DNA from: a virus
Virus record (IMG/VR): IMGVR_UViG_3300026484_000157
Span: 62,270-126,269 of that record
DNA: 64,000 nt
Strand: one strand, 5' to 3'
The notes beneath the pieces are model-generated. The model had not been told where the DNA came from. It made no database searches and saw only the letters and a program-made list of their open reading frames with translations. Made by a program: the position numbers and the translations under genes. Positions 7,954 to 64,000 of the stretch are shown one piece after another. Within the stretch, counting starts at the first letter, position 1; every line of letters begins with the position of its first letter.

Positions 7954-8628
7954 ATGGAAAAAATAATAGAACAAATGGCACATCTACAACATGCACTAAA
8001 TTCTAAGATACACCCAGAATGGTATAAGCAAGGAAATGACTGGGATACTGCAATCATGGTTGAGTCAGCAGAGTTGTCAGATTCTCTGCAATGGAAATGG
8101 TGGAAAAATATGGATGACGATTGGTCAAATGTAGAAGTGGAATTGGTAGATTTATTTCACTTCATACTATCTAAAATGATAGAAAAGAATAAGATGAATA
8201 TTGTGAACAAAGTGATAACTAGAGCACTTACAACATTCCAATTATCAAAGCCAATTGATGACAATGATATGAAAAGAGAACTAGTGCTTATGTTCAACAA
8301 ATCACTTGTACAAGCTACATTGGAAGATAAAATGCATGATGCAATTATGTATTGGTATAAAATGTGGCTTACTATTGGTAAAACAAAAGAAGATATCTTG
8401 AAACAATATTTTGTCAAGAACATTCTAAACACATTTAGACAAGACAATGGTTATAAAGATGGAAGTTATATCAAAGAATGGGTAGGTAAAGATGGGAGAA
8501 AATATGAGGACAATGTAATTGCATTTTACATTGCAGATGATTTAAAATTAGATGACACATTTCCAGATGAATTTGCTAAGGCATTGGATGAAGTTTATGC
8601 AGATACCAAAATTCATCATCTCAATTAA
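7954..8628 (+). CDS. dut: Dimeric all-alpha dUTPase (Campylobacter type)
   Basis: VESAEL, WKWWK, VELVDLFHF, KNILNTFRQDNGYK, EDN motifs. Confidence 0.9.
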   Translation: MEKIIEQMAHLQHALNSKIHPEWYKQGNDWDTAIMVESAELSDSLQWKWWKNMDDDWSNVEVELVDLFHFILSKMIEKNKMNIVNKVITRALTTFQLSKPIDDNDMKRELVLMFNKSLVQATLEDKMHDAIMYWYKMWLTIGKTKEDILKQYFVKNILNTFRQDNGYKDGSYIKEWVGKDGRKYEDNVIAFYIADDLKLDDTFPDEFAKALDEVYADTKIHHLN

Positions 8629-14149: not shown

Positions 14150-16018
14150 ATGGCTGATGTTTATTCTCTTGAAAAAGGTCTGGATCATCTTTATCCAGAA
14201 TATCAACTACAATATAAAGATAATATTGATGGGTTTAACAAGACATTTAATCCATCAATGATTGATGTGAATAAAACTATGTTCAAGAAATCTATGGAAA
14301 TGATAGAGCATCATAAATGGATGAAAGAATGTAAATTCACACTAGCAACATATACTGATCCAAAAGAGGATTATGAATTAGATATTGAAAAGTTTGACAA
14401 CATTGATCAGCTAATTGCTCTAATAGACGACCGATGTGAAATGCAAGACCCAGAGGATAACCCAGTCCTAAAAGAGCCAAAGAAAATTGTCGCATTCGAT
14501 TTAGAAACAACTGGTCTTAGAAACAGACATCAGAGAATTGGTGGTAAAAAAGAGTCACAAGTAGGTATTGTTGGAATATGTGTTGCATATTCTGAAACTG
14601 AGGGTTATTATATACCAATTAAACATAATGAGTTAGATGGCATTAAGAATTGGACTATTCAAGATGCAGTTAAGCTTATCAATTATTTCCAACAAGATAA
14701 CCATCTGGTAATATGGCACAATGCAATATACGATTTATTTGTAAGTATATCATCAGGTGTAACTTTGAATAAATCAATGAACCATGATACCTATTTATTA
14801 TGGAAGATGACATTTGAGGAAGAATTTAGCAATCTATTTCAATACGGACTAAAGCTCTTATCAGAAAGATTCCTTAAAAGAAAAATGCAGACAATTAACG
14901 ATCTGCTTGGTGTTGATGCGAAAGCACACATAGAATTTCAGAGATTACCATCTGTAAATGCAGTAACCTATGCAGTGTCTGATGCAACTAACACTTATGC
15001 ACTTTGGAAATATCTATTTAGCAAAAAATTCAGAAGAAACCCATATACTAAACAGCCAATAGCAACTAGACTGGAAATGCGATCTATCTATGATTCATTA
15101 TCAATGCTAAGTACTGGGATTCCAATAAACACAAGTCATGCAATCCCAATGCTGAAAACAATTTACAGAAGACAAATATTATTACAGAGTAAATTTGACC
15201 AATTGGTAGGTGATGGATTCACAGTAATAACTAGTGATGAAAAATGTGGAATGTATATTGGTAAAACAATAATGGGTGCTTGGGAAGAGTCAGGAAAAGA
15301 CAAAGATCAGGGATATAAATTTTTGGAAGAAAAATTTGGAATGAAGATGACTGTTAGAAATGGTGCAGGTGGAGTGAAAAAAGAGACATTCTCAAATGCT
15401 GATTCAGTTCTTGAAGCATTACTTAAATCTCTCCCAAATATGGATTTCATTAAAGATGAACAGAAGAAATCTTTAACATCAATCATTAAATATATACAAG
15501 CATATCGATCATTAGACCATGAAAGATCTGGATATCTTGGAATAATAAGATCAGTAACATTGGATGATAGAGGATATCCTTTTGTTCACAACTCGCTGAA
15601 CCTTAATGGTACCGACTGTGTAATAAAAGATACACCAATAAACATAAGAGTTAACAAATCTAATAAGCCAATATCCACGACGATGGACAAGCTAGATAGA
15701 TATTGTGATTATGATGATCTTGAGGGCGAATATGAGTTTAATGAATACATAGAAATTGAAACTATTGATGGCTGGGTACATATAACTCATTTTGTTACTA
15801 AACATAAAGACACAATTGAAATATCAACTAAATCAAGATCTATTGGTGTAGCAACTAGACATAGATTCATGAATGAAAATGACAGATGGATATATGCTAA
15901 TGAATTGAAAATTGGGGATTTTGTCAAAACAATAGATGGTTATGAAGAGGTTACAAAGATAATCAATTTAAAAGGACAAATGACATATGATATTGTCACC
16001 AACCACAAACAATTATAA
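14150..16018 (+). CDS. polA: Family A DNA polymerase N-part (3'-5' exonuclease plus thumb) fused to split-intein N-half
   Basis: ExoI AFDLETTG, ExoII WHNAIYD, YGLKLLS, ExoIII YAVSDA; LNLNGTD followed by intein block A CVIKDT. Confidence 0.88.
   Translation: MADVYSLEKGLDHLYPEYQLQYKDNIDGFNKTFNPSMIDVNKTMFKKSMEMIEHHKWMKECKFTLATYTDPKEDYELDIEKFDNIDQLIALIDDRCEMQDPEDNPVLKEPKKIVAFDLETTGLRNRHQRIGGKKESQVGIVGICVAYSETEGYYIPIKHNELDGIKNWTIQDAVKLINYFQQDNHLVIWHNAIYDLFVSISSGVTLNKSMNHDTYLLWKMTFEEEFSNLFQYGLKLLSERFLKRKMQTINDLLGVDAKAHIEFQRLPSVNAVTYAVSDATNTYALWKYLFSKKFRRNPYTKQPIATRLEMRSIYDSLSMLSTGIPINTSHAIPMLKTIYRRQILLQSKFDQLVGDGFTVITSDEKCGMYIGKTIMGAWEESGKDKDQGYKFLEEKFGMKMTVRNGAGGVKKETFSNADSVLEALLKSLPNMDFIKDEQKKSLTSIIKYIQAYRSLDHERSGYLGIIRSVTLDDRGYPFVHNSLNLNGTDCVIKDTPINIRVNKSNKPISTTMDKLDRYCDYDDLEGEYEFNEYIEIETIDGWVHITHFVTKHKDTIEISTKSRSIGVATRHRFMNENDRWIYANELKIGDFVKTIDGYEEVTKIINLKGQMTYDIVTNHKQL
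15617..16015 (+). mobile_element. Split intein N-fragment (133 aa)
   Basis: Block A Cys1; block B VATRHRF; W..A.EL..GD; start of block F TYDI; then stop with no HN terminus. Confidence 0.85.
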
Positions 16019-26825: not shown

Positions 26826-27665
26826 ATGACGATCGAAGAGACTATGGCTATCATAGATGCTAATGGCATTTGTTATGATACAATAAATAGGAACCATTTA
26901 AAAATTGATACTGCCAATGGCACCATAAATTTCTACCCATCTTCAGGGACATTCCATTATAACAATGAAAAATCAATAGGTAAATCTGTTTACCAACTGA
27001 TGGAACATTTAGGAATAAACGAGCCTAGATCATTTGTTGCTTCATCTGATGAAGAGGAAGATGACACATTCGATTGGCTAGATGAAAATGTTCCATCTAT
27101 TGAGAAATCACCGATTGAAAATAAAACTATTAAGCCACCACCTCCACAGAAATCAAATAATAACATTCTGCGAAATATCTCAATGGCTGATAGTAGAAAT
27201 ATTATGAAGCTTAAATATAAGCGACTGGATAAAGATGCATTTCCACCAAGAAAAACCAGACTAACTGATGCAGGTGTAGATTTATATGCAGTAAAAGATG
27301 CAGTATGGCAACAACATGGATCTCAATGGTTCTGCATTGTTGAAACAGGAATTGCTCTTGAAATTCCCCCATATCATTATCTAGCAACTGCACCTAGATC
27401 ATCTGCATTATTTGGTGATGATCATGTGTCAACATTCCATTCTGTATTAGATACTGGATATAAGGGAGAGATCACATTTTTGTGTAATTCATTTAGTGAA
27501 GAAATGCCACAGATTATAAAAAGAGGTGATAGAATGTCGCAGGTGGTTTTAGTTCCTATCCCAATGATAGATACTTCTTTTGAAGAGGTTGAAGAATTAC
27601 CAAGCCATTCAGATCGTGATAAATTAGGATTCGGAAGTTCAGGAGACACACCATGGGAAAAATAA
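26826..27665 (+). CDS. dut: Trimeric dUTPase-fold enzyme with N-terminal extra domain
   Basis: DAGVDL, PRSS, LDTGYKGEI, GDRMSQ, R...GFGSSG. Confidence 0.82.
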   Translation: MTIEETMAIIDANGICYDTINRNHLKIDTANGTINFYPSSGTFHYNNEKSIGKSVYQLMEHLGINEPRSFVASSDEEEDDTFDWLDENVPSIEKSPIENKTIKPPPPQKSNNNILRNISMADSRNIMKLKYKRLDKDAFPPRKTRLTDAGVDLYAVKDAVWQQHGSQWFCIVETGIALEIPPYHYLATAPRSSALFGDDHVSTFHSVLDTGYKGEITFLCNSFSEEMPQIIKRGDRMSQVVLVPIPMIDTSFEEVEELPSHSDRDKLGFGSSGDTPWEK

Positions 27666-28396
27666 AAACAATATATCTAGTAACTGGCAAAAAGAGATCA
27701 GGTAAAGATTACTTATCGGATTTAATGCTAGATGAACTGAATAACTCTGTAACTGCAAAGTTTTCAGGACTGATGAAGTCAATTACTCAATCATTATTTT
27801 CTATTGATTCTGATCAACTAGAAGAATATAAAAATGATGAAACAATACTTATTGGTGATGTGACTAAAGTTAGAATGGACTCTCAAAGTTTGGCAACTCA
27901 TTTAGTTGAGTTATATGACATTTTCAATAATTCATTCATATTTGGAGAACATGACAAGATAAACATTAATTATGATATTGTCTATCAAGTAGTGAAAAAA
28001 GTGATGAAAGATACGAAAGTTGAAGATATTACTTTCAGAAAATGGCTTCAAATATTTGGGACAGATATTACATATCCATTATTTGGTGATGATATCTGGG
28101 CTAGATACACATCTTATGAAATCAACCAGCTACTTAAAAAACATGACTCTGTTATAGTTTCTGATTTCAGATTTCCTCATGAATATGAAGTAGTTAATTC
28201 AATGGCGAATAATCTCTATAAACTAGTAACCATTAAGGTAATAGATCACAATCTTGAAGATTCATCTGATTCTCATATTAGTGAGAATGCCTTGAGTGGG
28301 TTTCACTTCGATAAACTGTTAGATAATTCAGTAAAAAACGGAGAAGAACCTATAAGAAAGTGGATAAATGAAATCATAATAAAAGGAGTCGATTAA
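27653..28396 (+). CDS. Deoxynucleoside monophosphate kinase
   Basis: GKKRSGKD, RKWLQIFGTD, VSDFRFPHE, HISE. Confidence 0.85.
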   Translation: MGKIKTIYLVTGKKRSGKDYLSDLMLDELNNSVTAKFSGLMKSITQSLFSIDSDQLEEYKNDETILIGDVTKVRMDSQSLATHLVELYDIFNNSFIFGEHDKININYDIVYQVVKKVMKDTKVEDITFRKWLQIFGTDITYPLFGDDIWARYTSYEINQLLKKHDSVIVSDFRFPHEYEVVNSMANNLYKLVTIKVIDHNLEDSSDSHISENALSGFHFDKLLDNSVKNGEEPIRKWINEIIIKGVD

Positions 28397-46266: not shown

Positions 46267-46572
46267 ATGAGAGTAATAGCAGGGATAATCCCTTTGAAAA
46301 ACAAACGAGTAAAAGCTGAAAAGAAATTAGTGACTATTGACATTAAGGCTACTATGTCAGAGGGGGATATGGCGAATTTCCTTGGAATGCTTGATACTAT
46401 ACAGAATTTAGGTGCTGTTGGTTCATCAAGAACTATTGAATTATGGGTAGATGGTGATGGTGCTTCATCACCTAAATTTGAATATAAGATTAACCCACCA
46501 AGTTTAGTGGAACCAATAATGACAGATGAATCTGCTAATGGCACATTCAGATTTGAAATGGAGGGACAATAA
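46267..46572 (+). CDS. Hypothetical protein with 'VIAGI' leader
   Basis: LG..GSSR....VDGDG core. Confidence 0.6.
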   Translation: MRVIAGIIPLKNKRVKAEKKLVTIDIKATMSEGDMANFLGMLDTIQNLGAVGSSRTIELWVDGDGASSPKFEYKINPPSLVEPIMTDESANGTFRFEMEGQ

Positions 46573-47141
46573 TGGATAATACAATTTTGGTTGACATGGA
46601 CAATACAGCATTTGATTTTACAAAGCAATATGTAAAATATCATAATAAACAAGTTGGTACGACAATAAGACCTATAGATCTTAAGGGTGCAGGTTACAAT
46701 TTCTTCTCAATATTAGGAGTTTCAGAAGAAGGTAAATACAATTATTTAAGATTACCTAAATTTTTTGATTCAATGCCACCAATGGAGGGTGCAGTTGCAA
46801 TATTGAATAAATTACATAAACAAGGTATCAACATAATTTTTACAACTACTGGTGTTGTGCCTGAGGCATATAGTGGCAAAATTAACTGTTTGAAACGATA
46901 TTTTAAATGGTTCAATATGGAAGATCATCTAATCATGATTAAGAACAAGCATTTGTTGAAACCTGCAATCATAATTGATGATAACCCCCATGTAATTAGA
47001 AATTCAAGAGATCATCATCATGTAATTATATTTGATGATGACTGGAATCAGAACATGGAATGTGACTATCGGACTAGAAGTTGGGATGATGCTTTATATC
47101 AACACATTCTAAACACAATAAGGATACAAAATGAGAAATAA
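46572..47141 (+). CDS. 5'(3')-deoxyribonucleotidase (HAD)
   Basis: LVDMDNT, FF..MPP.EGA, K, IIDD.P, WN. Confidence 0.85.
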   Translation: MDNTILVDMDNTAFDFTKQYVKYHNKQVGTTIRPIDLKGAGYNFFSILGVSEEGKYNYLRLPKFFDSMPPMEGAVAILNKLHKQGINIIFTTTGVVPEAYSGKINCLKRYFKWFNMEDHLIMIKNKHLLKPAIIIDDNPHVIRNSRDHHHVIIFDDDWNQNMECDYRTRSWDDALYQHILNTIRIQNEK

Positions 47142-52155: not shown

Positions 52156-52193
52156 AAGGACAAACAATGAATATCATTGCAGGAATTACAACA
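52155..52193 (+). repeat. 39-bp exact direct repeat (RBS plus MNIIAGITT), second copy at 57299-57337
   Basis: AAAGGACAAACAATGAATATCATTGCAGGAATTACAACA at both sites. Confidence 0.9.
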
Positions 52194-52535
52194 TCAACAG
52201 TAAAGGCTAGTACCCTTTTTGACAAGATCAAGACAATATCAAAAAGAGGTGATGGATGGGATGATGTACATCAATATTTTGATGATATCGATGGCATTGA
52301 AACAGTTGGTAGAGATCAAGGAGATAGTTGGGATAACTATGGTAACGAAACTCCACTAGATTATAAATTTAATCTAGATATTTCTTTTGGGGATGACCTA
52401 AAATATGCAGTAACAAATGATGGTAAAGCATTTGATAAATTGGACAAGTTTCTTGACAAATGTCTTGAATTATCAAAAGACCATGATGAAAACGATGTGT
52501 ACCCAGAACTAACTAAATATGCTAAAAGTCTATAA
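52167..52535 (+). CDS. Acidic protein with MNIIAGITT leader
   Basis: Leader ends VKAS. Confidence 0.65.
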   Translation: MNIIAGITTSTVKASTLFDKIKTISKRGDGWDDVHQYFDDIDGIETVGRDQGDSWDNYGNETPLDYKFNLDISFGDDLKYAVTNDGKAFDKLDKFLDKCLELSKDHDENDVYPELTKYAKSL

Positions 52536-52573
52536 AAGTTAACTCACCAATCCCAACCACTCTAAAAGGTGGT

Positions 52574-54126
52574 ATGGGAAAAATATACACAAACACTGAC
52601 AAAATACAATTTTCGGATCTTCCACCTTTTGTAAAAGAGATGGTAACAGAACTTATAAATGACCAAAATTTTTACAAAGTGACTTATGAGGGTCATCTTC
52701 CAATAGATTACATTTATGTCATTATTGACAAGAAATACTTATTCAAGAAATTTAAGAATCCAACCATAGTATTATCCACATTGGCTTATGGTGATGAGTC
52801 TGAACTCCCAATATTACCACACAATGGATTATTAATTGGTGCACACATAACAGATCATGACTATTCCAATAACAGAATAAGAATGAATACTATGCAACAA
52901 GTAAACAAGTGTATTATTAAAACCACACCACCAGAAGACTGTACAGACAAGAGGATCTATCTTGGTCACTACACAGATTAAAAGGAGAAACAAAAATGAA
53001 GAAGATATTAATAATATCATTGCTAACAGTTAGTTTATTTGCTTGGGGTAAGGACAAAATTAAGACTCAGGCAAGAGAAGAAGCACAATCAATATGTATT
53101 GCAGGATTTTTATTTGCAATAACTACAGTTCATAACGGAAGTGGGACTGGTGTGTCAATAACACAAATATTTAGAGAAGGTCTGAAAGATAACTATCCAA
53201 ATAGACCAATAAAATGTAATAATCACAAGAAAGGAAAATAATGCCAAGTTATAAAACAATAGAGATATCGGTTGATGAAGGGAGATATAGATTTCAACAA
53301 GCAGATGATTCTAACAAAATCAAATTAATTGAGTCATCAACAGGTAAAACTATTGAAGTTTTTGATATTGATTTAGAACACAAGTTGCTAGGATCTGGTG
53401 GTGGATTCCTAAGTCTTAATGAATCTTTTGGTTACAATGTTTCTAAATATAAATCTCTTGGGGAGGTAATTGAATATGCTCACAAAATGTATAGTTAAAA
53501 TTTTGGCTATTTAATTTTATAAAGACATAACAAATTAAAACATTCAAGGATAACAACATGGAACAACTATCAAAATCAGATAGAACTAAGGTTAGAAAAT
53601 ACTACATCAAGAAGCTAGGAAAATCTTCAACTGATTCTGAAATTAAAGAATTATGTGATTCTGTTACAACAGTTAGAGAAGCAAAAATCGAAATAAACAA
53701 GATTGCGAGTACAAGATAATGAAGTTCCTTAAAGTTGAAGAATCTTATTTAATGGCAATGATTGAAAAAGTTGCTACAATGCAGGAAGAAATTTCATCAC
53801 TGAGAGATGAAAATTATCGAATTAATAATTTGGCAGGAGATTTAGAAGATTACAATAAGCATCTTGTAAAAAGACATAAGACTGATTGCGATCACATTGA
53901 AACTCTAAGACATGCTAATAAAAGATTGACGATTACAAATAAATCAAATAATTTGCTTATTGCTTCATTGAATGATAAATATAAGTCAGTTAAAGGTTAT
54001 AAATCGTTATATAATTCGATAAAACACAAAATTGCGATTATCGAGTCACAACCAGAACCTGCAAGTTGTAAAATTATAAAAATTACCGATTCATTAGAAC
54101 AAATGGGGGTTGAAAAATATGCATAG
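52574..54126 (+). CDS. Small hypothetical genes (52574-52981, 52996-53241 secreted, 53241-53498, 53558-53719, 53719-54126)
   Basis: SD-led or coupled ORFs; 53558 follows the conserved promoter. Confidence 0.5.
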
Positions 54127-54847
54127 TGAGAAAATTAAAGCAAGAATTATAAAACTATTGGCTCTTGCAACAAGTTCAAATGAGGCAGAATCACTCTCTG
54201 CCATGAATAAAGCGGTTGAACTCATGCAAAAATACTCAATAGATGAGAATCAACTACATAAACAAACTATTGAAACACTTCAAATTGAAACTAAATATAA
54301 ATTAATACCAAGTTGGGTTGCAGTGTTATACAATGAAATTTCAAAATCTGCAGGAGTATACTGTGTATACAATAATGCAATTGGTTTTAACAACACTAAT
54401 GCAGAATTTTATCTATCTGGAAGAAAATCAGACATATTGAATGTGGAATATATAACTACATATTTAATGGCTCAAATTGAGAAAATGAGCAAAGAATTTA
54501 CAAAGACCCTACCTAAGGACATGAAACCAATGGATAAACAGCAAATGTCCAAGTCTTATAGAATGGGGATGTCGGTTGGCTTAGGTGCGAGAATGAATGA
54601 AATCACAAAGGAATTCTTCAAAGAAATAAACTCAACCGCATTAGTCCCAGTCGATGACAATATTGTTAAATATAATGAGGCAGAAGAGGACTTTCTTAAA
54701 GATAATAAAGTAAATATGACAAAGAGAACTGCAACACTTCACCAAGAAGCAGCAGATAGGGGTAATCAGGACTCTGCAAAGATTTCGATAAATAAATCAA
54801 TAGACGGGACTGTTACCCCACACGAGGATGCTCTTCTGTTAAAATAA
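54119..54847 (+). CDS. DUF2786-domain protein
   Basis: RIIKLLALA.SSNEAE...A..KA..LM.KY. Confidence 0.78.
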   Translation: MHSEKIKARIIKLLALATSSNEAESLSAMNKAVELMQKYSIDENQLHKQTIETLQIETKYKLIPSWVAVLYNEISKSAGVYCVYNNAIGFNNTNAEFYLSGRKSDILNVEYITTYLMAQIEKMSKEFTKTLPKDMKPMDKQQMSKSYRMGMSVGLGARMNEITKEFFKEINSTALVPVDDNIVKYNEAEEDFLKDNKVNMTKRTATLHQEAADRGNQDSAKISINKSIDGTVTPHEDALLLK

Positions 54848-54904
54848 TATGAATAACATGCTTTATTTTGGATATCCTAAATTTAACAACAAAAGGATAT
54901 CCAA

Positions 54905-55081
54905 ATGGAAAATTACAAAGCAGCAGTAGAATTCGCTCAGGCGATAGTAGATGAAGCTACAAATCTTGAGGAAAAACATACTAAATCTGGATCTGCAAGA
55001 CAGAGAAAAAACTTAAATGAAATCAAAAAACTTGTTACTGGTGCTAAGAATGAACTTCTAGCAAAAGATAAAGGAGAATAA
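54905..55081 (+). CDS. 58-aa basic helical protein, Hc1/histone-H1-like
   Basis: K.TKSGSAR.RK.LNEIKKL; SD AAGGA; absent from ORF track. Confidence 0.45.
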   Translation: MENYKAAVEFAQAIVDEATNLEEKHTKSGSARQRKNLNEIKKLVTGAKNELLAKDKGE

Positions 55082-55084
55082 ACA

Positions 55085-55933
55085 ATGTTCAATATCATAT
55101 CAGGTGTAAGCTCTAAAGCTGATAAGAGTACAGTGGCAACTCAGCTAACTACAGTACTCAGAAACTTTAAGAAGAGAAATAAAGATGCATTCAAAATTGG
55201 AGTTATCACTATCAATAAGAAAGTGCCAATTGCAATTTATTGGGCAGAGGTTGGAGAAAAATACCCAGGCATAGATGGTAAATATCCAACTGTTGAAAAT
55301 CGTAGATTAGAAGTTGGTACAAAATTTTTAGCAGCAATTCCAACATCATCAGATCTTACTAAAAAGAATGCACTATTCATTTATGATGAGATTAGTAATT
55401 CTTGGGGACGAATACCAGGGGCTTATTATAAGAAGATTATTGAAGCATCAGATATTCGACAATCAGTCTTAGAAACAGTTTTGGAAAAGAAAGAACTGAA
55501 TGAAAAACAAGCAATCCTAGATGAGGAAATAAAATTAGCTGAGCTAATTGATGATTATTCTAAATTAGCTGAAAAATTTGCCAATGAACTTAGACCTGTA
55601 AGTAGATTTGGTGCTGATTTCAAATCTAAAGATGGTCAAATTCCTGACATCTATTTCCAAGAATGGCAAGATTGGGATATGGGGACACCATCGGTTGATG
55701 TTCGTTATCGTATCAATGAGTCTTTTAGAGAAAGAACATCAAATCATTCATTAGAATTTTCATTTTCAAGTGGTCGTATTAGCAATGATGAAGATCGAAA
55801 AGAACTAGTGAAAATCACAGAAGAGATTGGTAAAATGCAATCTATTCTTGCAAAACATAAGGTTGGTCTTGATAATGCATATGACAAGATCAATAACAAA
55901 CAAGATCAAATATGGGAAATGAAAAAATCATAA
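55085..55933 (+). CDS. Hypothetical protein with 'NIISG' leader
   Basis: 282-aa ORF. Confidence 0.6.
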   Translation: MFNIISGVSSKADKSTVATQLTTVLRNFKKRNKDAFKIGVITINKKVPIAIYWAEVGEKYPGIDGKYPTVENRRLEVGTKFLAAIPTSSDLTKKNALFIYDEISNSWGRIPGAYYKKIIEASDIRQSVLETVLEKKELNEKQAILDEEIKLAELIDDYSKLAEKFANELRPVSRFGADFKSKDGQIPDIYFQEWQDWDMGTPSVDVRYRINESFRERTSNHSLEFSFSSGRISNDEDRKELVKITEEIGKMQSILAKHKVGLDNAYDKINNKQDQIWEMKKS

Positions 55934-55999
55934 TTCATAGTTAAAACAGTTATCCTTTGATTTTATAGGAACATAAGATAAAAATCAAAGGATAACAAA

Positions 56000-56809
56000 A
56001 TGTCAAAACAACCAACAATCTCACTAGAACAACTTCAAAAGTCAGTGCCATCAGCATTCACAACATCAAGATACTCAAAAGCTTCAGAAAAATACCAAGT
56101 TGCAAACACATCAGAAATCGTTAAAGAGTTCATGAAAAGTGGATGGGATATTACTCGAGCAACACAATCTATGGTAAACAACCCAGAGAAACAAGGTTAT
56201 CAGTTCCACTCAATAAGAATGAGAAATCAAGATATAAAAATCAGTGAAAATAATAAAGAGTTTGCTGAAATTGTAATTACTAATGGTCATGATACAAATC
56301 ACCTACTTACAATCAGTATGGGTATTTATAGACAAATTTGCTCAAATGGACTAGTAGTTTCGGATTCTTATATTGAGCCTATCAAAATAAAACATGTTGG
56401 GGAGACCTTTAAAACTGAATTGGCTCAGGCAATAACTTATGCATCTGAAAAAACAGAGGATTTAAAAAGATTGATGAATACAATGAAAGATAAAGAAATT
56501 ACCGATGAACAGCAACTAATGATGGCTAAGCAATTCTTTGAATTCAGAATGGAAAAAGAACCAACTGATACACAAATTGATCAAATACTAACGGCTCATC
56601 GTGAAGAAGATGATGGTAACCAACTATGGGTAACATACAACCTGCTTCAGGAAAATATTATCCAAGGTAAATTCACATATGAAGTTAAGAAGCTGATAAA
56701 AGATAAAAAGACAAAGATCTCTGAATACCAAGCTAAGGCAATATCTTCTGTTGCAAAAATACAAGACCTGAATAAAAAGATGTTCGATAGTGCGATGAGT
56801 TATGCTTAA
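56000..56809 (+). CDS. DUF932/DUF945 family protein
   Basis: NGHD, G.YRQICSNGLV, H.G, R.ED....LW..YN..QE. Confidence 0.82.
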   Translation: MSKQPTISLEQLQKSVPSAFTTSRYSKASEKYQVANTSEIVKEFMKSGWDITRATQSMVNNPEKQGYQFHSIRMRNQDIKISENNKEFAEIVITNGHDTNHLLTISMGIYRQICSNGLVVSDSYIEPIKIKHVGETFKTELAQAITYASEKTEDLKRLMNTMKDKEITDEQQLMMAKQFFEFRMEKEPTDTQIDQILTAHREEDDGNQLWVTYNLLQENIIQGKFTYEVKKLIKDKKTKISEYQAKAISSVAKIQDLNKKMFDSAMSYA

Positions 56810-57294
56810 TAGTCTGGTCGCTAAAATAAGACACTCTGAAAAGCCTACCTCTTATTGGGTAGAGCTAGTGTCGGTTTCAGATTTACCACAGCAAGTCAAG
56901 ACGGATCTTATGAACTGGTTAGAGCCACCAAAGGTACAACCTACTGTAGTACACGATACAACTAACCTATGGCAGAATGTCATAGGATTATCACACTAAG
57001 GAGACAACAATGTATGAATTACAAATAGCAAAAGACAGAATGGATAATTTAATCCACGAAAGTAGATCAGAGTTAGAATCAGCAAAGCCAACATTAAATT
57101 TTAATCATGAGATAACAAAGAATGACATTGAAAAAGCCATTCAGCAATCAAATTGGGCATGGACTGATGTAATGGTAGGTTTAACAGAGATGGGAATATC
57201 GCCAACCCAAGATGATAAAGATAGAATACTGCTACAATTGGTAAAGAAGAAAATAAAAGGTGTTCTATGGAAAAAGAACCAAACGAAATATTAG
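56802..57294 (+). CDS. Two small hypothetical proteins (56802-56999, 57010-57294)
   Basis: Packed ORFs. Confidence 0.5.
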
Positions 57295-57310
57295 AAACAA
57301 AGGACAAACA

Positions 57311-57661
57311 ATGAATATCATTGCAGGAATTACAACACAAGCATCTATGAAGGTGGATGACAAATTTGAAATTTGGGATGATAAGTTAGCGGAGTCACTT
57401 TCTGAACAGTTTGGTTTGAACAAGAGTCAACTAGACAAATACTTCAATAAGATTACAGTACACGATGGTGGTAACAGAATCACAGTTGAGTGTAAGAAAT
57501 GTGAAATCATGGAACAACTAGATGTATTCTCTGAAAAAGTATACGAGTTACAAGAGATGATGGAGTTAGAAGAAGATGAGGCAATCGAGGAAGTTATGGA
57601 TCTTGAAGTGAACTTCTATATAGAAGATGGCGAAATAGAATATGCAACTATTGGGGAATAA
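57311..57661 (+). CDS. Acidic protein with MNIIAGITT leader
   Basis: SD-supported start at 57311; leader ends TQAS. Confidence 0.65.
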   Translation: MNIIAGITTQASMKVDDKFEIWDDKLAESLSEQFGLNKSQLDKYFNKITVHDGGNRITVECKKCEIMEQLDVFSEKVYELQEMMELEEDEAIEEVMDLEVNFYIEDGEIEYATIGE

Positions 57662-57675
57662 ACAAACCCCAATAG
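57648..57675 (+). terminator. Hairpin, possible terminator
   Basis: CTATTGGGG/CCCCAATAG; no U-tract. Confidence 0.4.
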
Positions 57676-57822
57676 CCCACAATAAAATCTCTCACAAATA
57701 GTATTAAAATTCCAATTATCCAATTTTATAAGAACATAAGACATAAATCCAAAAACCTAGTATTAAAATTTTCGGTTTTTGGATTTATGAGGAAATAGAA
57801 AATAAAATTCAAGGATAACAAC

Positions 57823-58461
57823 ATGAAAGCATTTAACGGAATAGACACAAACGGAAACATCTTAGAAATCACTCACAATGATAACAACACTCACTTTTAT
57901 TGCAATAATAAGAGAATCAAAGGGTCATTGGCAATTGAAATGAAAGAAAGATTCGAATCTTCTAGAGTTATTACAGCATCTAAGAAAGAAAAAACAGAGG
58001 TAATGGTTGATTTAGCAAAAGAAGGATCATCAGATACTACTGCAATTGTATTTAATGGGACAATTGATCAACTATTCAAACTAGTATCTGAAACTAAATC
58101 AATAAAAGATAAAATGGCACTATTACAATCAAATTTAACAAGTGAAATTCAACTTTTATTAGGATGGAGCAGAAAATCAGAACTTTCAAAAGGATTCTCT
58201 TGGAAGAGAATTAACAAGTTCATGGAAAAATGTAAAACTAATGAGGACTGCAATGCTAAATTGGTTAGAACTGAAGACTGTAACCCTGAGGTTATAAATA
58301 GTCTAGTTGCTAATGGTAAACCGAGATTCGAATTAAAAGATGAAGAAAAAATTCAAGTTATTAATTCATTACCATTAGGGAAAGAAAAGCTATATTGTGA
58401 TGCTATATCAAGAAACCTTAAATTAGGATTATCTGATAAACAAATAAATAGCTTAATATAA
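57823..58461 (+). CDS. Hypothetical protein; C-half resembles a phage ligase N-terminal DNA-binding domain
   Basis: Tandem promoters upstream; S.KDK..LL...L.LGLS.K.IN similar to the ligase at 32538. Confidence 0.45.
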   Translation: MKAFNGIDTNGNILEITHNDNNTHFYCNNKRIKGSLAIEMKERFESSRVITASKKEKTEVMVDLAKEGSSDTTAIVFNGTIDQLFKLVSETKSIKDKMALLQSNLTSEIQLLLGWSRKSELSKGFSWKRINKFMEKCKTNEDCNAKLVRTEDCNPEVINSLVANGKPRFELKDEEKIQVINSLPLGKEKLYCDAISRNLKLGLSDKQINSLI

Positions 58462-58474
58462 AAGGAAATCCATT

Positions 58475-58759
58475 ATGGCAAATTACAGAGAGTTGAAAAA
58501 GAAATATCAAAATGATCCAGTAATGTTAGGTTTCGTTTCTTGTGAAGGAGATCTGGACTGTATAAATGAAAAACTGCATGAAGCAGGTAATGGATCAGAT
58601 TTCACATTACAAGAAATTGCCGACATTTTAGGAATAACAAGAGAAAGAGTGAGACAGATTGAATCTAGTGCAATTAAAAAATTAAGACACCCTAAAGTTG
58701 GTCGGTCTTTAAATACATATGTGCATGAGCACATAACTGATACACCTAATGGATTCTAG
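58475..58759 (+). CDS. Stand-alone sigma-70 region 4 protein
   Basis: FTLQEIADILGITRERVRQIESSAIKKLRHP. Confidence 0.88.
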   Translation: MANYRELKKKYQNDPVMLGFVSCEGDLDCINEKLHEAGNGSDFTLQEIADILGITRERVRQIESSAIKKLRHPKVGRSLNTYVHEHITDTPNGF

Positions 58760-58832
58760 TAATAGAATCCATCTTAAATCAAGATTGTGCACAACTTACA
58801 TAAAAATGAAATCAAATAAAAAAAGGACTCAA

Positions 58833-60230
58833 ATGGAAAATGAAACAATATTAGTCGAAGGTAAAATCAATATTTTGCTTGATCATCTATATGGCTCATC
58901 TGCTAAAGGGCAAGTATGTGCAGCGATAGCAGATAAAGAACGACCAAGTATTCTTATTGCTAATCATAGCACATCGGCATCACATACAGTAATGGAAGGG
59001 GATGAAGAATTTGTATTTAAGGCTCTACCATCTGCAACATTCTTATGTAAAACAAGAGATGACTACAATCCATCAATATTTATGGCAGCATCATCAGGAT
59101 TTGAAATTGATCAAGTTATCAAAGAGATGAAATGGATCAATAATCCAGAAATTAAAGTTTATGTACATCCATATGCAGTTATAGTTCTTCAGGAACATAA
59201 AAATCTAGAAGCAGGTCTTAATAGAGATGGGTCTTCATCTGATAACAGTGGAACATTACATCTTGGATCTACAATGAGTGGACAATCTTATGCATTTGCA
59301 GATAAAATGACAAGAAGATCACCATCATCATTAGCGAAGGATTATGCTGAGGAACTATATAAACATAATATTATAGTTATGGCTACACCATGGGCATTCC
59401 AACTACAATTATTATCAGAATTAGCAAAGGATGATGCAACTGCTCTTGCTGAAATGCCACAAGGATTTCCATTGTCAATTGATCATGGACCAGAGTTTCC
59501 TTATTCAACATTCAGAAACATTACACCTATGCAATTATTGGCAGACTTAGGTCTTAATGAAGCATATTTAGGATCAGTTATTGGTAATATTAGATCACTC
59601 CCTATCAGAGTCAGTAACAGATTTGTTGGTAATAACATGGACAATGTAATGTTATTCGCTAAATTTGATGCTGAAAACAAGATGAGTGAGTCATCTTGGA
59701 ACACACCAGAGCAACTTGGAATGACATATTCAGATGTAAATGCAATCACATATGATCTATTGATGGGTAATGAAAAACGATTCAAAAATTGGATCATAAC
59801 AGACATTAAAGGTGTAACTGGAACATCTGGACCATTTGAAGAAGATATGGAGGAGATTTCATGGAGAGAATTATCTGATCATTTAACCTCAATTGCAGGT
59901 AAAGATGTAAATGTTGAAGAAATTACTACACTTACAAAATTAAATAGAAGAATAGCAAAAATAGCCGATGAGAGATCATTATCTATAGATATGCTGATGA
60001 AATTTATGGTAGCAGTTAATCCTACTCATCTATCAATCACATTCTTGAACTATATTGATCCAAACTTGGAAGGTGCTACTTCAATAGAGGAGATCAACAA
60101 AAGTGAGATATTTAATGATTGGTCTATTAGAGCAATTGAAGACTTGAGAGAAGCATATAATGGTGAGGTATTTCCAAAAATTACTGCTCTTCAAACTGGT
60201 AAATATTTAGAAAATGTAATATTCATTTAA
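58833..60230 (+). CDS. purZ: PurZ-like (adenylosuccinate synthetase homologue with Asp-to-Ser switch)
   Basis: YGSSAKG, SHT, VHPYAVIVLQEH, GSTMSG, QGFPLSIDHG..PYST.R, PIRVSN, SGP, TTLTKL.RRI, TFLNY. Confidence 0.8.
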   Translation: MENETILVEGKINILLDHLYGSSAKGQVCAAIADKERPSILIANHSTSASHTVMEGDEEFVFKALPSATFLCKTRDDYNPSIFMAASSGFEIDQVIKEMKWINNPEIKVYVHPYAVIVLQEHKNLEAGLNRDGSSSDNSGTLHLGSTMSGQSYAFADKMTRRSPSSLAKDYAEELYKHNIIVMATPWAFQLQLLSELAKDDATALAEMPQGFPLSIDHGPEFPYSTFRNITPMQLLADLGLNEAYLGSVIGNIRSLPIRVSNRFVGNNMDNVMLFAKFDAENKMSESSWNTPEQLGMTYSDVNAITYDLLMGNEKRFKNWIITDIKGVTGTSGPFEEDMEEISWRELSDHLTSIAGKDVNVEEITTLTKLNRRIAKIADERSLSIDMLMKFMVAVNPTHLSITFLNYIDPNLEGATSIEEINKSEIFNDWSIRAIEDLREAYNGEVFPKITALQTGKYLENVIFI

Positions 60231-60242
60231 GGAGGATATATC

Positions 60243-60851
60243 ATGAGATTAACATGTAAGAAAGAATTTAGAGGTCTTGGGCTAAAACCCAATGACCAAG
60301 TGGATGCAACAATCCAAGACGGTGAGTATTTAATCGATGGTGCAGTATTGATTTCAAAAGCGACTCTAGACGAGCATTTTTCAATATCATGCGATGCTAA
60401 TGGCAGTGAAGATTCTTCTGTGCAACAGAACCAAACAGGAATGCAAATGTTTATTGGTACAAAAACAATAATGGCACGACCTCAGCAAAATGGTGATAAA
60501 GAGGGTTATGAAGTTGTCTATGAGGACGGATACAGATCGTGGTCACCTAAAGAGACATTTGAAAAAGCATACAGATTAGATGAGAATTTAACATTTGGTG
60601 ATGCAGTTCACCTAATGAAATCTGGTCATAAAATGTCTAGAGCAGGATGGAATGGGAAGAGTATGTTTGTATTCTTAGTGCAGGGATCAACATTCAAGGT
60701 AAATAGACCACCATTAAATCAATTTTATTGCGAGGGTACTGAAGTAACTTATCAACCACATATTGATATGAAAACTGTAGATGGTACAATCGTACCATGG
60801 TTGGCTTCACAAACAGATATATTAGCAGAAGATTGGGGAGTTGTACTATGA
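60243..60851 (+). CDS. DUF2829 / Tad2-like anti-defence sponge
   Basis: TFGDA...MK.G....RAGWNGK.MFV...PWLASQTDILAEDW; upstream GY.V.YEDGY.SWSPK domain. Confidence 0.8.
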   Translation: MRLTCKKEFRGLGLKPNDQVDATIQDGEYLIDGAVLISKATLDEHFSISCDANGSEDSSVQQNQTGMQMFIGTKTIMARPQQNGDKEGYEVVYEDGYRSWSPKETFEKAYRLDENLTFGDAVHLMKSGHKMSRAGWNGKSMFVFLVQGSTFKVNRPPLNQFYCEGTEVTYQPHIDMKTVDGTIVPWLASQTDILAEDWGVVL

Positions 60852-61435
60852 AATACTTGTCAGTAGATATAGAGACAACTGGTCTTAATCCAGAAAAATG
60901 CCAAACATTGGAGGTATCTTTTGTAGTAGAAGATACCAATAATATAAAACCACTGGAAGAACTTCCAAGATTTACTGTTTGTATTGAACATAAGAGGATT
61001 CATGGAGAGCCTTATGCTCTCTCAATGCCTTATAATGCTTCAATTATAAACGATATGAAGAACAAATTGGAAGATAGAAAATTCAATTTCATTAAGCCTG
61101 ATGAATTTTATTCATCTCTTTTACTATTCTTATCAAAAAACGATTTACTTGATGATAAGAATAAGGCAACTTTAAATATAGCAGGTAAGAATTTCCAAGC
61201 ATTTGATAAGCCATTCATAATGAAATTGCTAGAATCTGATCCACAATGGAACAATCAAATAAGATTTAGATATCGAGTTATTGACCCAGCAATTCTATTT
61301 GTGAATTGGAAAGATGACTCTGCTCTACCTGATTTGAATACATGTAAACAGAGAGCAAATATTAGCGGTGAGGTAGCTCATGACTCATATAGTGATGCTC
61401 TTGATGTAATCAAGCTTCTAAGAAGTACTTATTAA
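60848..61435 (+). CDS. DEDDh 3'-5' exonuclease
   Basis: VDIETTGL, GKN..FD, H.S..DA. Confidence 0.85.
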   Translation: MKYLSVDIETTGLNPEKCQTLEVSFVVEDTNNIKPLEELPRFTVCIEHKRIHGEPYALSMPYNASIINDMKNKLEDRKFNFIKPDEFYSSLLLFLSKNDLLDDKNKATLNIAGKNFQAFDKPFIMKLLESDPQWNNQIRFRYRVIDPAILFVNWKDDSALPDLNTCKQRANISGEVAHDSYSDALDVIKLLRSTY

Positions 61436-61517
61436 CTCAATAGGTACCTACATCTTATAAAACTGAAGAGAGATAATAAAGGAGCTACCAAGTCTCATAA
61501 TAAAACTCTCTTCAAAT

Positions 61518-61595
61518 GTCACGATAGACGGTTATTAGGAAGACCTCACTTATAATAGTAAGATAGCACTGGTTCGAATCCAGTTCGTGACACCA
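61518..61595 (+). tRNA. tRNA-like RNA with aberrant D and anticodon arms (identity undetermined)
   Basis: Acceptor GTCACGA/TCGTGAC, discriminator A, encoded CCA, T-arm ACTGG-TTCGAAT-CCAGT. Confidence 0.7.
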
Positions 61596-61623
61596 CCTAA
61601 AAATAAATACAAAAGAGAATAAT

Positions 61624-61950
61624 ATGAATAGAAAAATGAACTTATTAATGGCATCAGCTATGGTCGGTATGGCTTCAATGGGGATAAGCCCACAATATAA
61701 TCCTATGAGATTACCAAGAGTAGGCACTAAAGATCACGAACCTCAAAGTGACGAAGATATACAGAATATGTTATCTAAGGCTGAAATCAAAAGACAAAGA
61801 AAATTTGATAAGAAGTGTAATTCATGTCGTTTCCTTGTTAAAAACTGTAACCACCATGATGACTGTTTGTACTTTTGTAACCATCCAAGTAATCCAGAAG
61901 ATACTGAAGGTAACAACAGAATGAGTATTTGCCCAATTTTTAAAATGTAG
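61624..61950 (+). CDS. Hypothetical Cys-rich protein
   Basis: C-terminal CxxC...C...C..C. Confidence 0.5.
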   Translation: MNRKMNLLMASAMVGMASMGISPQYNPMRLPRVGTKDHEPQSDEDIQNMLSKAEIKRQRKFDKKCNSCRFLVKNCNHHDDCLYFCNHPSNPEDTEGNNRMSICPIFKM

Positions 61951-62012
61951 TATTAAAATTCCAAAAATTCGATTTTATAGGAACATAAGAAATAAAAATT
62001 GAGGATAACAAC

Positions 62013-63462
62013 ATGGCATATAAAATTTCAAAAACAATTAAAGGTATCCGAGTTAATAAAAATTACATTGGCGATTCATTTCTTGAAAAAGAAACTGTAT
62101 TATCGGATAGAAAGAACATTCATCAAGCAAGACCATCAAGATTAAGAGAATATAAAGTGGTCAAGGTCACTAGTGACCTAGATATCAACATTAGTTTGTT
62201 AAAATCACTAGTTCCTGAAATAGAAACATCAGATATTGACCAAGAGGCATTTAATATTAAAATGGCTAAAGTTGATGCAGCATATTACAATCAAGATGGT
62301 AATAATCATAATTGGGGAAATAAAGCAATTGCCTTATTTTTAAACGACTTATTTACAGTTGAAATTTTTGAGTACTAGGAGATAACCATGAAATCAAATT
62401 ACAATAGAGATACAATACCAAATGCAGATGGCACATTTACAGCTTATGTTAAAGACCCAGCAGGTAATAAAATAGAAGAACTTACAATAACAGGTAAATC
62501 GAAGATTGGGGTTGGCTCTAAATTAGGTCAAGCAATCAAAAAATTCGATTTTGATAAATATGAAGAAGAAAATGATGTATCTGTTAAAGCTGAGGTAGAT
62601 CCTTATAAAGGTCTATCAGGTGTAGATAGACTAATTGCTCAATCTATTGATAAAGGGACTTATTTGGAAGATGAGATCAATGGTTGGACTGTTAAATTAG
62701 TACCACAAGATTGGGCATCAACTTATAAATTCAGAATAGGTAAAATATCTTATTCATTTGACATGAGAATTGATGAAAAAGTAATCATATTTTCTAATTG
62801 TAGTAACAGATTTGGTGATAATCTTACCGATGTACATATGCCAAAAATTATGAACAAGATTGATGAAATCATAGCAACTGTTAAATCTAATTTGGCTCAA
62901 ATTAGTCAAGAATTGAAAGAGAAATCTAGTTATGATAAAGATTTAACACCAACTCAGAAAAAGCTAGGACAAGTTATTGATAAAGACAAATCAAATCCAT
63001 CAACTAATAAAGTCCTAATTTGGCAATTTATGGATCTACATATTATTGGGGAGGTAACACTATGAAAACCCATCCAAAGGTGGCTAAATTAATTCTACAA
63101 ATTAAGCTTGTTAAAAATAGAAAACAAAAGCTAATGGAATCAACATTGGAGAAAATAAAACAACTATCAAAGGTTAAATAATGAAGAAAATAACTATAGC
63201 ACAACACTATACGATAGATATTCCTGCTGAAATGGAAAATTTATCACCAGAGCAACTGCTTAATCAACTAAATAGAATGTATGACATTCATGGGCAGGGC
63301 ATAATTGCTCATGGACTGGATGCAAAACAAGATTATGACATGACAACATTAACTCACATTGATGATGAAGAGGTCTATACTGATAATTCATCAATTTCCA
63401 ATGAGGGTCATATCATAATCTTAGATGGTCAGCCACTATCGGATGAGGGAGATAAATTATAA
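62013..63462 (+). CDS. Hypothetical genes (62013-62378, 62388-63065, 63181-63462)
   Basis: First gene follows the conserved promoter. Confidence 0.55.
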
Positions 63463-64000
63463 TGGAATGGCATCTATTACACCCAAAAAAATCATATGGA
63501 TTATCATCTAAGTCTGAATTTTTCAAAAAGGTAGTAATCAACCACTTAGTACACCTAAATGAATCGCAAGGAATACATAAGTCTATGTCAGTATTTGGCA
63601 CTTATTTTCTTATTGATGATGTCCATGTACCAGCCAAGAATAGATTCATTATTTCTGCAATTAAAAGAGATGAGAAAGGATTTACCAATATAGACTTGGA
63701 TAAAAATTGGAATAAAATTATGTCACAATTATTTGGCATTGATTATAACCCAAGTCTATCAAAATTGATAACAAAGAACACTACAATGGATAGACTATAC
63801 CATGTATTTGCTTTACTAACAGGATCTACTACAAATAAAACAATCAATAATGATACATTTAAAAGAGTAATTTCAGGAGAAGCAAAGTTATCACATAGTT
63901 ATGGTCATAAGCTTAATTCATTGATTATGTTTGTTAATAACCCAACAAATCCTGCTCTAACAGAATTACTTACTTCAATAGATGAGTCATCTTATGAAGT
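63462..64000 (+). CDS. Hypothetical protein, runs off window end
   Basis: ATG 63462 (MEWHLLHPKK...) open to the window edge. Confidence 0.5.
   Translation, partial: MEWHLLHPKKSYGLSSKSEFFKKVVINHLVHLNESQGIHKSMSVFGTYFLIDDVHVPAKNRFIISAIKRDEKGFTNIDLDKNWNKIMSQLFGIDYNPSLSKLITKNTTMDRLYHVFALLTGSTTNKTINNDTFKRVISGEAKLSHSYGHKLNSLIMFVNNPTNPALTELLTSIDESSYE

Follow-up and report, generated by a model that had tools for sequence, protein, structure and literature searches.

A divergent PurZ-like gene outside the known Z-clusters in a complete 126-kb myovirus genome

Can a PurZ homologue that has none of its usual partner genes still start the synthesis of 2-aminoadenine (Z) for DNA? This question is raised by a gene at positions 58833 to 60230 (+ strand) of a 64,000-nt stretch of viral DNA (hereafter the window), which is the second half of IMG/VR record IMGVR_UViG_3300026484_000157 (G000:62270-126269, where G000 is the whole record). 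In the literature examined, Z-phages are described as small siphoviruses or podoviruses whose PurZ, DatZ, MazZ and in some cases DpoZ genes are tightly clustered, or as PurZ0-DutZ-DmtZ actinophages (PMC12884076; bioRxiv 2025.10.22.683976; PMC8342488; PMC13128860), and homology has served to predict more than 2000 viruses as Z-phages (PMC13128860). The complete 126-kb myovirus studied here encodes a PurZ-type enzyme whose active site is intact, and has none of the known partners. Since its best sequence and fold matches are the PurZ enzymes of phages phiVC8 and S-2L, the protein most probably works like PurZ (dGMP + Asp + ATP); it lies outside the described Z-clusters and scores below the curated threshold of the PurZ model. 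On this sequence evidence we lean, with some hesitation, towards an active, deep-branching member of the PurZ lineage that makes a dSMP-type product in the absence of the classical helpers.

The PurZ-like gene, its residues and its fold

The open frame spans 58749 to 60230. The gene was taken as 58833-60230 because the ATG at 58833 agrees with the N-termini of the homologues and AGGA lies ∼10 nt 5' of it. Translation, profile, PDB and fold matches all identify the product as an adenylosuccinate-synthetase homologue; SASHT, EMPQG, PIRVSN and TTLT were located in the translation. The gene and its elements are as follows.

58833..60230, + strand: PurZ-like adenylosuccinate-synthetase homologue, 465 amino acids (aa), P0001
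58890..58910, + strand: P-loop YGSSAKG, residues 20-26, with Ser22 in the PurA Asp13 column
58974-58988, + strand: SASHT, residues 48-52
Residues 207-211: EMPQG
Residues 257-262: PIRVSN
59619..59819, + strand: clade-specific insertion, residues 263-329, directly after the conserved RV loop
Residues 365-368: TTLT
60039..60053, + strand: TFLNY, residues 403-407, standing for the GTP-specifying TKLD of PurA

A preliminary description of the window had claimed that Ser replaces the catalytic Asp of PurA in YGSSAKG, that TFLNY replaces TKLD, and that three usually conserved motifs are altered to SASHT, EMPQG and TTLT; each of these was found at its exact place. In a MAFFT alignment of 104 rows that includes Escherichia coli PurA, Ser22 falls in the Asp13 column, which is Ser in all 103 non-PurA rows, and the 30 homologue rows of a separate alignment carry the same Ser. 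F404 and N406 occupy the K331 and D333 columns, so that the PurA combination of catalytic Asp13 with GTP-specifying Lys331/Asp333 is replaced by Ser22, Phe404 and Asn406. The aromatic pair of PurZ (F295/Y298, not (S/T)KLD) is present as F404 and Y407; in phiVC8 PurZ these two residues are described as stacking the adenine of ATP (bioRxiv 2025.10.22.683976). The same preprint names residues that tell PurZ from PurA, P233 and W252 among them. By alignment, such residues are kept or conservatively changed in the window protein (phiVC8 to window: F12 to Y20, S14 to S22, T262 to T365, P233 to P257, W252 to W344, F295 to F404 and Y298 to Y407), and Tyr at the phiVC8 F12 position also occurs in 20 rows grouped as classical PurZ. 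Thr365 stands at the 2-amino pocket, where PurA has Gly. The catalytic and ligand residues of PurA are otherwise retained (K25, H51, T147, R161, Q210, T226, V260, T368, R372), as are those of the Asp-loop (T365, T366, T368, R372, R373), and 28 columns, catalytic residues among them, are invariant across 30 homologues. E. coli PurA Arg303 is reported to contact O2' of IMP (Czernecki et al., PMC8342488); its position is Leu370 in the window protein, and 34 of the 42 rows grouped as classical likewise have Leu there; these 42 include L053, in fact a member of clade B2b (see below). The window protein thus has in common with phiVC8 and S-2L PurZ the Ser at Asp13, the Thr at phiVC8 T262, the F/Y pair for KLD, Leu/Lys for Arg303, and the catalytic His, Lys, Gln and Arg residues.

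Homology to adenylosuccinate synthetases is far above chance. The Pfam model PF00709 gave 46.4 bits against a cut-off of 27, with its best stretch covering residues 20-163 only, and PHROG 1211 ('2-aminooxy adenylosuccinate synthetase') matched at 1.3e-25. In phmmer searches of PDB chains, S-2L PurZ (9.4e-23) and phiVC8 PurZ (3.2e-18) ranked above Pyrococcus horikoshii PurA (1e-8) and E. coli PurA (0.016). The top NCBIfam model is PurZ NF038379, followed by the archaeal-type PurA model (88 bits) and the bacterial PurA models (∼43 bits); the equivalog PurA models as a whole gave 25-88 bits vs cut-offs of 368-700 (about 400 for the bacterial ones). An AlphaFold2 (AF2) model built with 30 homologues as input had a mean predicted local distance difference test score (pLDDT) of 91.7 and a predicted template modelling score of 0.91. 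In Foldseek searches with this model, ranks 1-5 were all PurZ structures of phiVC8 (PDB 6fko, 6fm1, 6tnh) and S-2L (7odx), which share its fold at target-normalised TM-scores of 0.82-0.85 with 21-23% identity in the structural alignment, although they have 343-359 aa vs 465 aa here. P. horikoshii PurA came next, and PurZ0 (7vf6) stood at rank 8; the latter is missing from the phmmer list at E<=1. The short archaeal PurA (P. horikoshii PH0438; 2d7u, 5k7x) resembles the window protein in its compact PurA architecture and fold (target-normalised TM-score 0.85-0.87) and is its second-best NCBIfam model type; it is a much weaker sequence match, however, and its annotation and crystals include GTP and IMP; the GTP-specifying motif is missing from the window protein.

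The preliminary description had also noticed an insertion of roughly 60 aa after PIRVSN, and measurement bears this out. Between the RV and SG anchor columns the window protein has 71 residues; classical PurZ has a median of 13 (41 rows) and E. coli PurA a single residue, so that ∼58 residues are extra over the classical median. AF2 predicts a small alpha/beta subdomain (block pLDDT 81-96 over residues 261-330) with strands at 273-280, 288-290, 315-317, 320-326 and 328-330 and a helix at 299-310. We looked for a known domain in residues 262-332 by Atlas feature and structure searches, and nothing rose above threshold.

Relatives and gene context

The window protein belongs to a sizeable, mostly metagenomic clade and is not a lone oddity, a point missed in the preliminary description. 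A word-indexed search returned 60 homologues at E<=1e-3, the nearest 13 with 53-58% identity and 439-469 aa; an exhaustive search returned 931 representatives at E<=1e-3, 19 of them at E<=1e-30. Within its clade, 38-59% identity is conserved across contigs. The best match among 50,697 phage records was a 'putative adenosuccinate synthetase' of Flavobacterium phage MaF61 (genome 168 kb), with 29.8% identity and 89% of the query covered. In IMG/VR we confirmed 293 relatives, many of them on contigs of 90-436 kb, and kept 80 loci for further analysis; a genome scan added four loci, from a Lentisphaeria metagenome-assembled genome, Chondromyces, Methylobacter and Sorangium.

A quick IQ-TREE phylogeny was computed on 84 rows, leaving out 20 of 38 near-redundant classical loci and, for its length, L060 (an 821-aa intein form). 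It separated a classical PurZ clade (21 rows, with phiVC8, S-2L and Bacillus phage BpsS-140) from clade B (61 rows, Shimodaira-Hasegawa-like approximate likelihood ratio support 97). Clade B contains B1 (28 rows, about 375-400 aa), B2a, the window's clade (13 rows from large phage contigs, support 99), and B2b, the MaF61 clade (20 rows, support 100). FastTree with all 104 rows recovered the same four groups as monophyletic. In these trees the window's clade is distinct. The outgroups were E. coli PurA and Wayne PurZ0 only, both long branches that meet at the root, and with these two outgroups an approximately unbiased test did not reject classical PurZ and B2a as one clade (p = 0.184). A phylogeny with PurA, PurZ and PurZ0 had been proposed in the preliminary description as the check on its PurZ assignment; in the trees built here the protein stands apart from the long E. 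coli PurA branch and is placed outside the classical clade. Wayne PurZ0 branches apart near the tree root, and the window protein is outside the PurZ0 subgroup.

The MaF61 synthetase and its clade B2b share with the window protein the Ser at Asp13, TTLT, F..NY, an insertion at the same site, and residence in large phage genomes without a Z cluster. They differ in forming a separate clade, in keeping Asn38, and in an insertion that is shorter (median 34.5) and unrelated in sequence to that of the window protein. MaF61 and G003, a complete 129-kb genome of the MaF61 clade, also encode their own adenylosuccinate lyase, whereas G000 is without a lyase match. Our literature search found no account of the window's clade, although Fig. 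S8, S9 and Table S3 of PMC12884076 may include MaF61-like proteins, and the words adenylosuccinate, PurZ and aminoadenine do not appear in the MaF61 paper.

Inteins usually sit in genes that matter. Seven of the nine longer homologues scanned (747-1197 aa) carry inteins or LAGLIDADG elements, some of them two (P0061, P0078, P0068, P0151, P0188, P0110, P0142); among these, P0061 is a close relative at E 3e-85 to the window protein. In the remaining pair (619 and 551 aa), PF00709 was the only match. We had considered the long homologues as possible fusions with partner enzymes, and this was ruled out, as the extra length is intein or LAGLIDADG insertions.

The claim that no datZ or mazZ is recognisable in the window held in profile and phmmer searches over the window. 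Because large genomes can scatter genes, whole records were searched as well, and none was found in the whole of G000 or in two related phage records (G001, a 42-kb fragment, and G002, 94 kb with terminal repeats). For DatZ, PF01966 and PF13023 were without match in G000, and when the phiVC8 and S-2L DatZ proteins were run by phmmer --max on its six-frame translation, the lowest E was 0.11. For a MazZ-type dGTP pyrophosphatase, PF03819, PF04447 and PF18909 were all without match in G000, and S-2L MazZ, Wayne gp51 and the L071 fusion as phmmer queries found nothing there at E<=1e-3. Neither the Lyase_1 model nor the MaF61 PurB query found PurB in the complete G000, and phmmer with Wayne NDT-Dut and both DpoZ likewise gave nothing. 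The DUF550 and DUF5664 models did match in the Z-phage records that served as positive controls. G001 and G002 were also without DatZ, MazZ, PurB, gp51 or DpoZ matches; their Dut genes do match the Wayne Dut domain.

The surroundings of the related genes were surveyed by phmmer with characterised-phage proteins over +/-10 kb of the 80 viral loci, with the following counts.

Classical loci (n = 38): DatZ 33, MazZ 34, phiVC8-like DpoZ 32, lyase 0, Dut-like 0, DUF5664-like 4, NT5C 0
B1 loci (n = 24): DatZ 1, MazZ 1, phiVC8-like DpoZ 0, lyase 1, Dut-like 3, DUF5664-like 3, NT5C 0
B2a loci (n = 2): NT5C 2; DatZ, MazZ, DpoZ, lyase, Dut-like and DUF5664-like all 0
B2b loci (n = 15): lyase 4; DatZ, MazZ, DpoZ, Dut-like, DUF5664-like and NT5C all 0

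Thus DatZ+MazZ, DUF5664-like or Dut-like genes lie within 10 kb in 7 of 24 B1 loci, and adenylosuccinate lyase is encoded in 4 of 15 B2b loci, in addition to MaF61 and G003. Such ties of sister lineages to Z-type pool enzymes speak for the PurZ reading. The partner-less context of the window gene is shared by most of this large sister radiation, on phage contigs of up to 436 kb.

Two side observations concern these loci. A Dut-like gene of 263-283 aa lies directly 3' of the PurZ-like gene in L028 and L038 (viral) and in L093 and L095 (Myxococcota; Chondromyces apiculatus and Sorangium sp., respectively, with a PurZ-like gene of the B1 type). The four proteins match the Dut part, plus some upstream residues, of Wayne NDT-Dut, with E values between about 1e-19 and 1e-21. 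The arrangement resembles the pairing of PurZ0 systems, here with a synthetase that is not PurZ0, and may belong to prophages. In G003, a weak HD_3 match (positions 121118-121366, L098; 24.9 bits vs cut-off 22.5) lies in a 308-aa open reading frame (ORF), which from its sequence could be a candidate dNTP hydrolase and a DatZ analogue in the MaF61 clade.

A possible route to 2-aminoadenine and its rivals

The enzymes of the window named in the preliminary description did not include two dUTPase types, a dNMP kinase, an NT5C-type deoxynucleotidase and a split family-A polymerase. These are found at the following positions.

7954..8628, + strand: dimeric (all-alpha) dUTPase-family NTP pyrophosphatase (PF08761 94.6 bits; PHROG 173)
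14150..16018, + strand: split family-A DNA polymerase, N-terminal piece with the 3'-5' exonuclease domain plus more (PF01612; PHROG 17)
26826..27665, + strand: trimeric-type dUTPase, domain at residues about 126-274 (PF00692, TIGR00576, AF2)
27653..28396, + strand: dNMP kinase, overlapping the dUTPase gene (PF21448 64.9 bits; PHROG 139)
46572..47141, + strand: NT5C-type 5'-deoxynucleotidase (PF06941 84.6 bits)

The trimeric dUTPase protein has 279 aa and consists of a 65-aa folded N-terminal domain, a disordered linker and the dUTPase domain (AF2). For the dimeric enzyme, PHROG 173 bears the label 'nucleoside triphosphate pyrophosphohydrolase' (dimeric dUTPase-family protein), and the sole NCBIfam match is NF049964, an Epsilonproteobacteria dUTPase model (91 bits vs cut-off 300). 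In L012 and L013, the two nearest relatives, the distance between NT5C and the PurZ-like gene is 2-3 kb. The trimeric dUTPase and NT5C are present in G000, G001 and G002 alike, the dimeric enzyme in G000 and G002, and the dNMP kinase in G000 only (vs its relatives G001, G002 and G003).

Homology, fold, the conserved catalytic and PurZ-specific residues, clade structure and the lack of the classical accessory genes are observed; which substrates are used, what the pool enzymes do and whether virion DNA holds Z throughout, in part or not at all is a matter of inference, and the route proposed is as follows. The PurZ-like enzyme would condense dGMP and aspartate, with ATP or dATP, to N6-succino-2-amino-2'-deoxyadenylate, which host adenylosuccinate lyase would convert to dZMP. 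The phage dNMP kinase, a candidate for dZMP phosphorylation, or host kinases would then give dZTP, to be incorporated opposite T. If A is excluded from the DNA, enzymes other than DatZ, MazZ and DpoZ must do so. Dut-type enzymes of PurZ0 phages are reported to hydrolyse dATP and dGTP (PMC12884076, NAR 2026), and because of this analogy we propose dATP clearance by a dUTPase-type enzyme: the extended trimeric dUTPase is a candidate dATP/dGTP pyrophosphatase and the dimeric dUTPase-family protein a second candidate pool enzyme, either or both of which might convert dATP and dGTP to the monophosphates. Such a step would also feed dGMP to PurZ, and NT5C is a candidate for the conversion of dAMP to dA. 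A bolder version, in which the lineage swaps adenine for 2-aminoadenine by means of a toolkit related to neither of the two already described, seems to us possible though rather doubtful; its parts would be the subdomain-bearing PurZ, the pyrophosphatase and NT5C as a stand-in for DatZ, the phage's own dNMP kinase and the split family-A polymerase.

The described toolkits are the points of comparison. Unlike classical PurZ, the window gene is not next to DatZ, MazZ or DpoZ, and its host virus is a 126-kb myovirus, not a phage of 40-45 kb. The PurZ0 system of Arthrobacter phage Wayne and Gordonia phage Ghobes is described as PurZ0 + DutZ + DmtZ + DUF5664 (PMC12884076). It is like the present case in having a Ser-type synthetase and a dUTPase-family enzyme in place of DatZ/MazZ (here a candidate role), and the 279-aa dUTPase with its N-terminal extension resembles the Wayne 307-aa NDT-Dut fusion in outline. 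The differences are that Wayne PurZ0 has GSE and Met/Asp at K331/D333, where the window protein has F/N; that the N-terminal domain of the dUTPase is here a 65-aa alpha-beta5-alpha unit whereas that of Wayne has the NDT fold; and that PF05014 and PF18909, of the PurZ0-system genes, were not found in G000. An NDT-like DmtZ in the N-terminal extension was considered and ruled out, since it has only ∼65 residues (helix, five strands, helix) and lacks PF05014; its Atlas look-alikes are unnamed viral proteins. As for the trimeric dUTPase being nearest to the DutZ of Z-phages, tblastn gave no support: the top match is in Arthrobacter phage Pureglobe5, which has no PurZ in the 18.5 kb inspected, and the other top matches are ordinary dUTPases.

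Several results weigh against an active PurZ that serves Z-DNA. The match to PurZ NF038379 (117.7 bits) lies far under the curated cut-off of 300; the PurZ-type assignment of the preliminary description is supported by the best PDB, NCBIfam and PHROG matches, which are PurZ, and by the substrate-defining residues, which are kept. The complete 126-kb G000 yielded no profile match to HD, HD_3, MazG, Lyase_1, NDT, DUF550 or DUF5664. Among the 41 clade B loci, DatZ and MazZ were each found once within 10 kb and DpoZ not at all; clade B is therefore in a different genetic context (DatZ 1/41 and DpoZ 0/41 vs 33/38 and 32/38 in classical loci). The trimeric dUTPase shows ordinary dUTPase motifs in alignment, its nearest phage relatives are ordinary dUTPases, it gave no match to Wayne DutZ (NDT-Dut) at E<=1e-3, and its N-terminal domain is not NDT-like by AF2 and structure search. 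A family-A polymerase, as expected of Z-phages, is present in the genome but lies in two genes and is not DpoZ-like: the DpoZ_1 model gave 40 bits vs a cut-off of 500, and phmmer in G000 gave E>1 with phiVC8 DpoZ and nothing at E<=1e-3 with Wayne DpoZ. The protein itself departs from phiVC8 and S-2L PurZ in a P-loop with GSS, not GST, in the Asn38 column, where 12 of the 13 members of its clade have Ser and every other group has Asn, and in the additional 58-residue subdomain at the deoxy-specificity loop. At that site S-2L PurZ has a short PurZ-specific insertion (A242-W250, after V241), which draws the valine towards the nucleotide C2', and Czernecki et al. tie this valine shift to deoxy-selectivity (PMC8342488). 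Further differences from phiVC8 PurZ are Y244 to Glu, G256 to Ser, S273 to Lys and P144 to Ser.

These features bear on how the PurZ scaffold might have been put to another use. With shifted specificity, which the preliminary description had set beside a Z-genome with other accessory enzymes as the second option, it would act on another nucleotide (GMP, dIMP or another 6-oxopurine nucleotide) or take another amine donor, and the outcome would be a different modified purine or a partial, non-replacing modification. The 71-residue clade-specific segment in the C2'-adjacent loop, the Ser at Asn38, the changes at the four differentially conserved PurZ positions just named and the missing accessory genes all speak for it; the missing accessory set and the large insertion next to the sugar C2' in particular keep it alive. 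Reported contacts with the 2-amino group and the ATP adenine involve residues that are retained here, however, together with the Asp-loop, and these conserved residues favour ordinary PurZ chemistry. Adenylosuccinate lyase moreover accompanies members of the sister clade, and this implies that aspartate forms the adduct. On balance we regard a shifted specificity as unlikely. Less probable still is that the enzyme manipulates nucleotide pools or counters host defence without any A-to-Z replacement, by draining dGMP or through 2-aminoadenine nucleotides that target host enzymes or defence systems, with the DNA staying canonical. Such a role would fit the lack in G000 of known Z-type dATP-clearing enzymes and of DpoZ, and the gene that flanks the PurZ-like gene belongs to a Tad2-like (anti-Thoeris sponge) family. 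The Z-phage literature examined offers no precedent for it, dZTP once made is a polymerase substrate, and S-2L PrimPol is reported to incorporate A and Z alike (PMC8065100). A Tad2-like gene also adjoins PurZ in 3 of 38 classical loci, there between DpoZ and PurZ; because these loci also hold the full Z cluster, its adjacency is no argument against Z-DNA.

An ordinary auxiliary PurA that raises the AMP/dAMP supply would suit a genome as AT-rich as this one (31.5% GC), the Pfam match to adenylosuccinate synthetase exceeds its cut-off, and relatives in the MaF61 clade carry a lyase that would complete the path from IMP to AMP. This explanation is nevertheless very improbable in view of Ser at Asp13, F/N at the GTP-specifying K331/D333, Thr365 for the PurA Gly at the 2-amino pocket, bacterial PurA scores of ∼43 bits vs cut-offs of ∼400, and the long separate branch of E. 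coli PurA. The strong divergence and the large insertion might also suggest an inactive relic, which is hardly credible for an intact frame with a confident fold prediction, invariant catalytic columns and a clade conserved across contigs.

If Z-DNA is made by this PurZ-lineage enzyme, the accessory needs for adenine exclusion do not hold for all Z-phages, and there are further dATP-clearing enzymes still to be discovered; an alternative toolkit, if true, would be a third independent solution for Z-DNA, and the literature examined describes no large myovirus with one. If no Z-DNA is made, Ser-type PurZ homology alone is an unsafe predictor of Z genomes, which touches the more than 2000 predicted Z-phages. 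In either case the insertion at the C2'-proximal loop offers a natural experiment on deoxy-substrate choice in this enzyme family.

Neighbouring genes and the genome

The genes next to the PurZ-like gene are as follows.

58475..58759, + strand: sigma-factor region-4-like helix-turn-helix protein, 94 aa, upstream neighbour (PHROG 351 1.8e-9)
60243..60851, + strand: downstream neighbour, 202 aa, with a C-terminal Tad2-like (DUF2829) domain (PF11195 92 bits; PHROG 872)
60797..61435, + strand: DnaQ-like 3'-5' exonuclease candidate (PHROG 192 3.7e-12; weak RNase_T match)

The Tad2-like gene starts 13 nt past the stop of the PurZ-like gene. Its counterparts beside classical PurZ are at L054:1306-1827, L062:7043-7561 and L074:9557-9955, and L063 has a fifth Tad2-like copy, ∼7 kb away from its PurZ-like gene. 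This nucleotide-binding domain family may have some link with PurZ. In a promoter and terminator scan of 57000-62000 the counts were at shuffle level, and no operon boundaries could be called.

G000 has 126,269 bp and is rated 100% complete by CheckV; GC is 31.5%, and 178 of its 189 called ORFs are on the + strand. The phage is a myovirus (sheath domains were found), and a class I ribonucleotide reductase is among its gene products. Both ends of the record share a repeat of about 125 nt (G000:1-130 and 126140-126269; about 63870-64000 of the window), which fits a circularly assembled or terminally redundant genome; the record class is linear without end repeats. Megablast of window positions 50000-64000 against phage records gave zero matches. 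Of the 189 ORFs, 51 are in common with G002, 25 with G001 and 3 with G003. The stretch or part of it is present in five sequencing runs, and both labelled runs are hydrothermal-vent metagenomes; this origin and the affinities of the dimeric dUTPase hint at a Campylobacterota host. Phage relatives of the dimeric enzyme include Yersinia phage YerA41, and the two dUTPase-type genes of differing folds (7954-8628 and 26826-27665) reside in a single phage genome.

The fingers piece of the split polymerase is outside the window, in a 260-aa ORF at G000:17268-18050 (L003; PF00476 positions 199-326), ∼59 kb away. In the window, the N-terminal piece (14150-16018) is followed by an HNH endonuclease gene (15987-16835) and then a UvrD-type helicase ORF (17137-19440), and residues 487-620 of the piece resemble residues 26-166 of the helicase ORF (E 2.7e-10). 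The polymerase pieces of G002 are ∼9 kb apart with HNH genes between them, and in G001 an HNH gene interrupts the first piece. G002 has at least five ORFs that resemble the HNH endonuclease of the window, several with repeated N-terminal modules (L099-L103, e.g., 23153-24001, 29254-30900, 35024-36352, 36366-38561 and 51559-53412), and is thus heavily loaded with homing-endonuclease-like genes.

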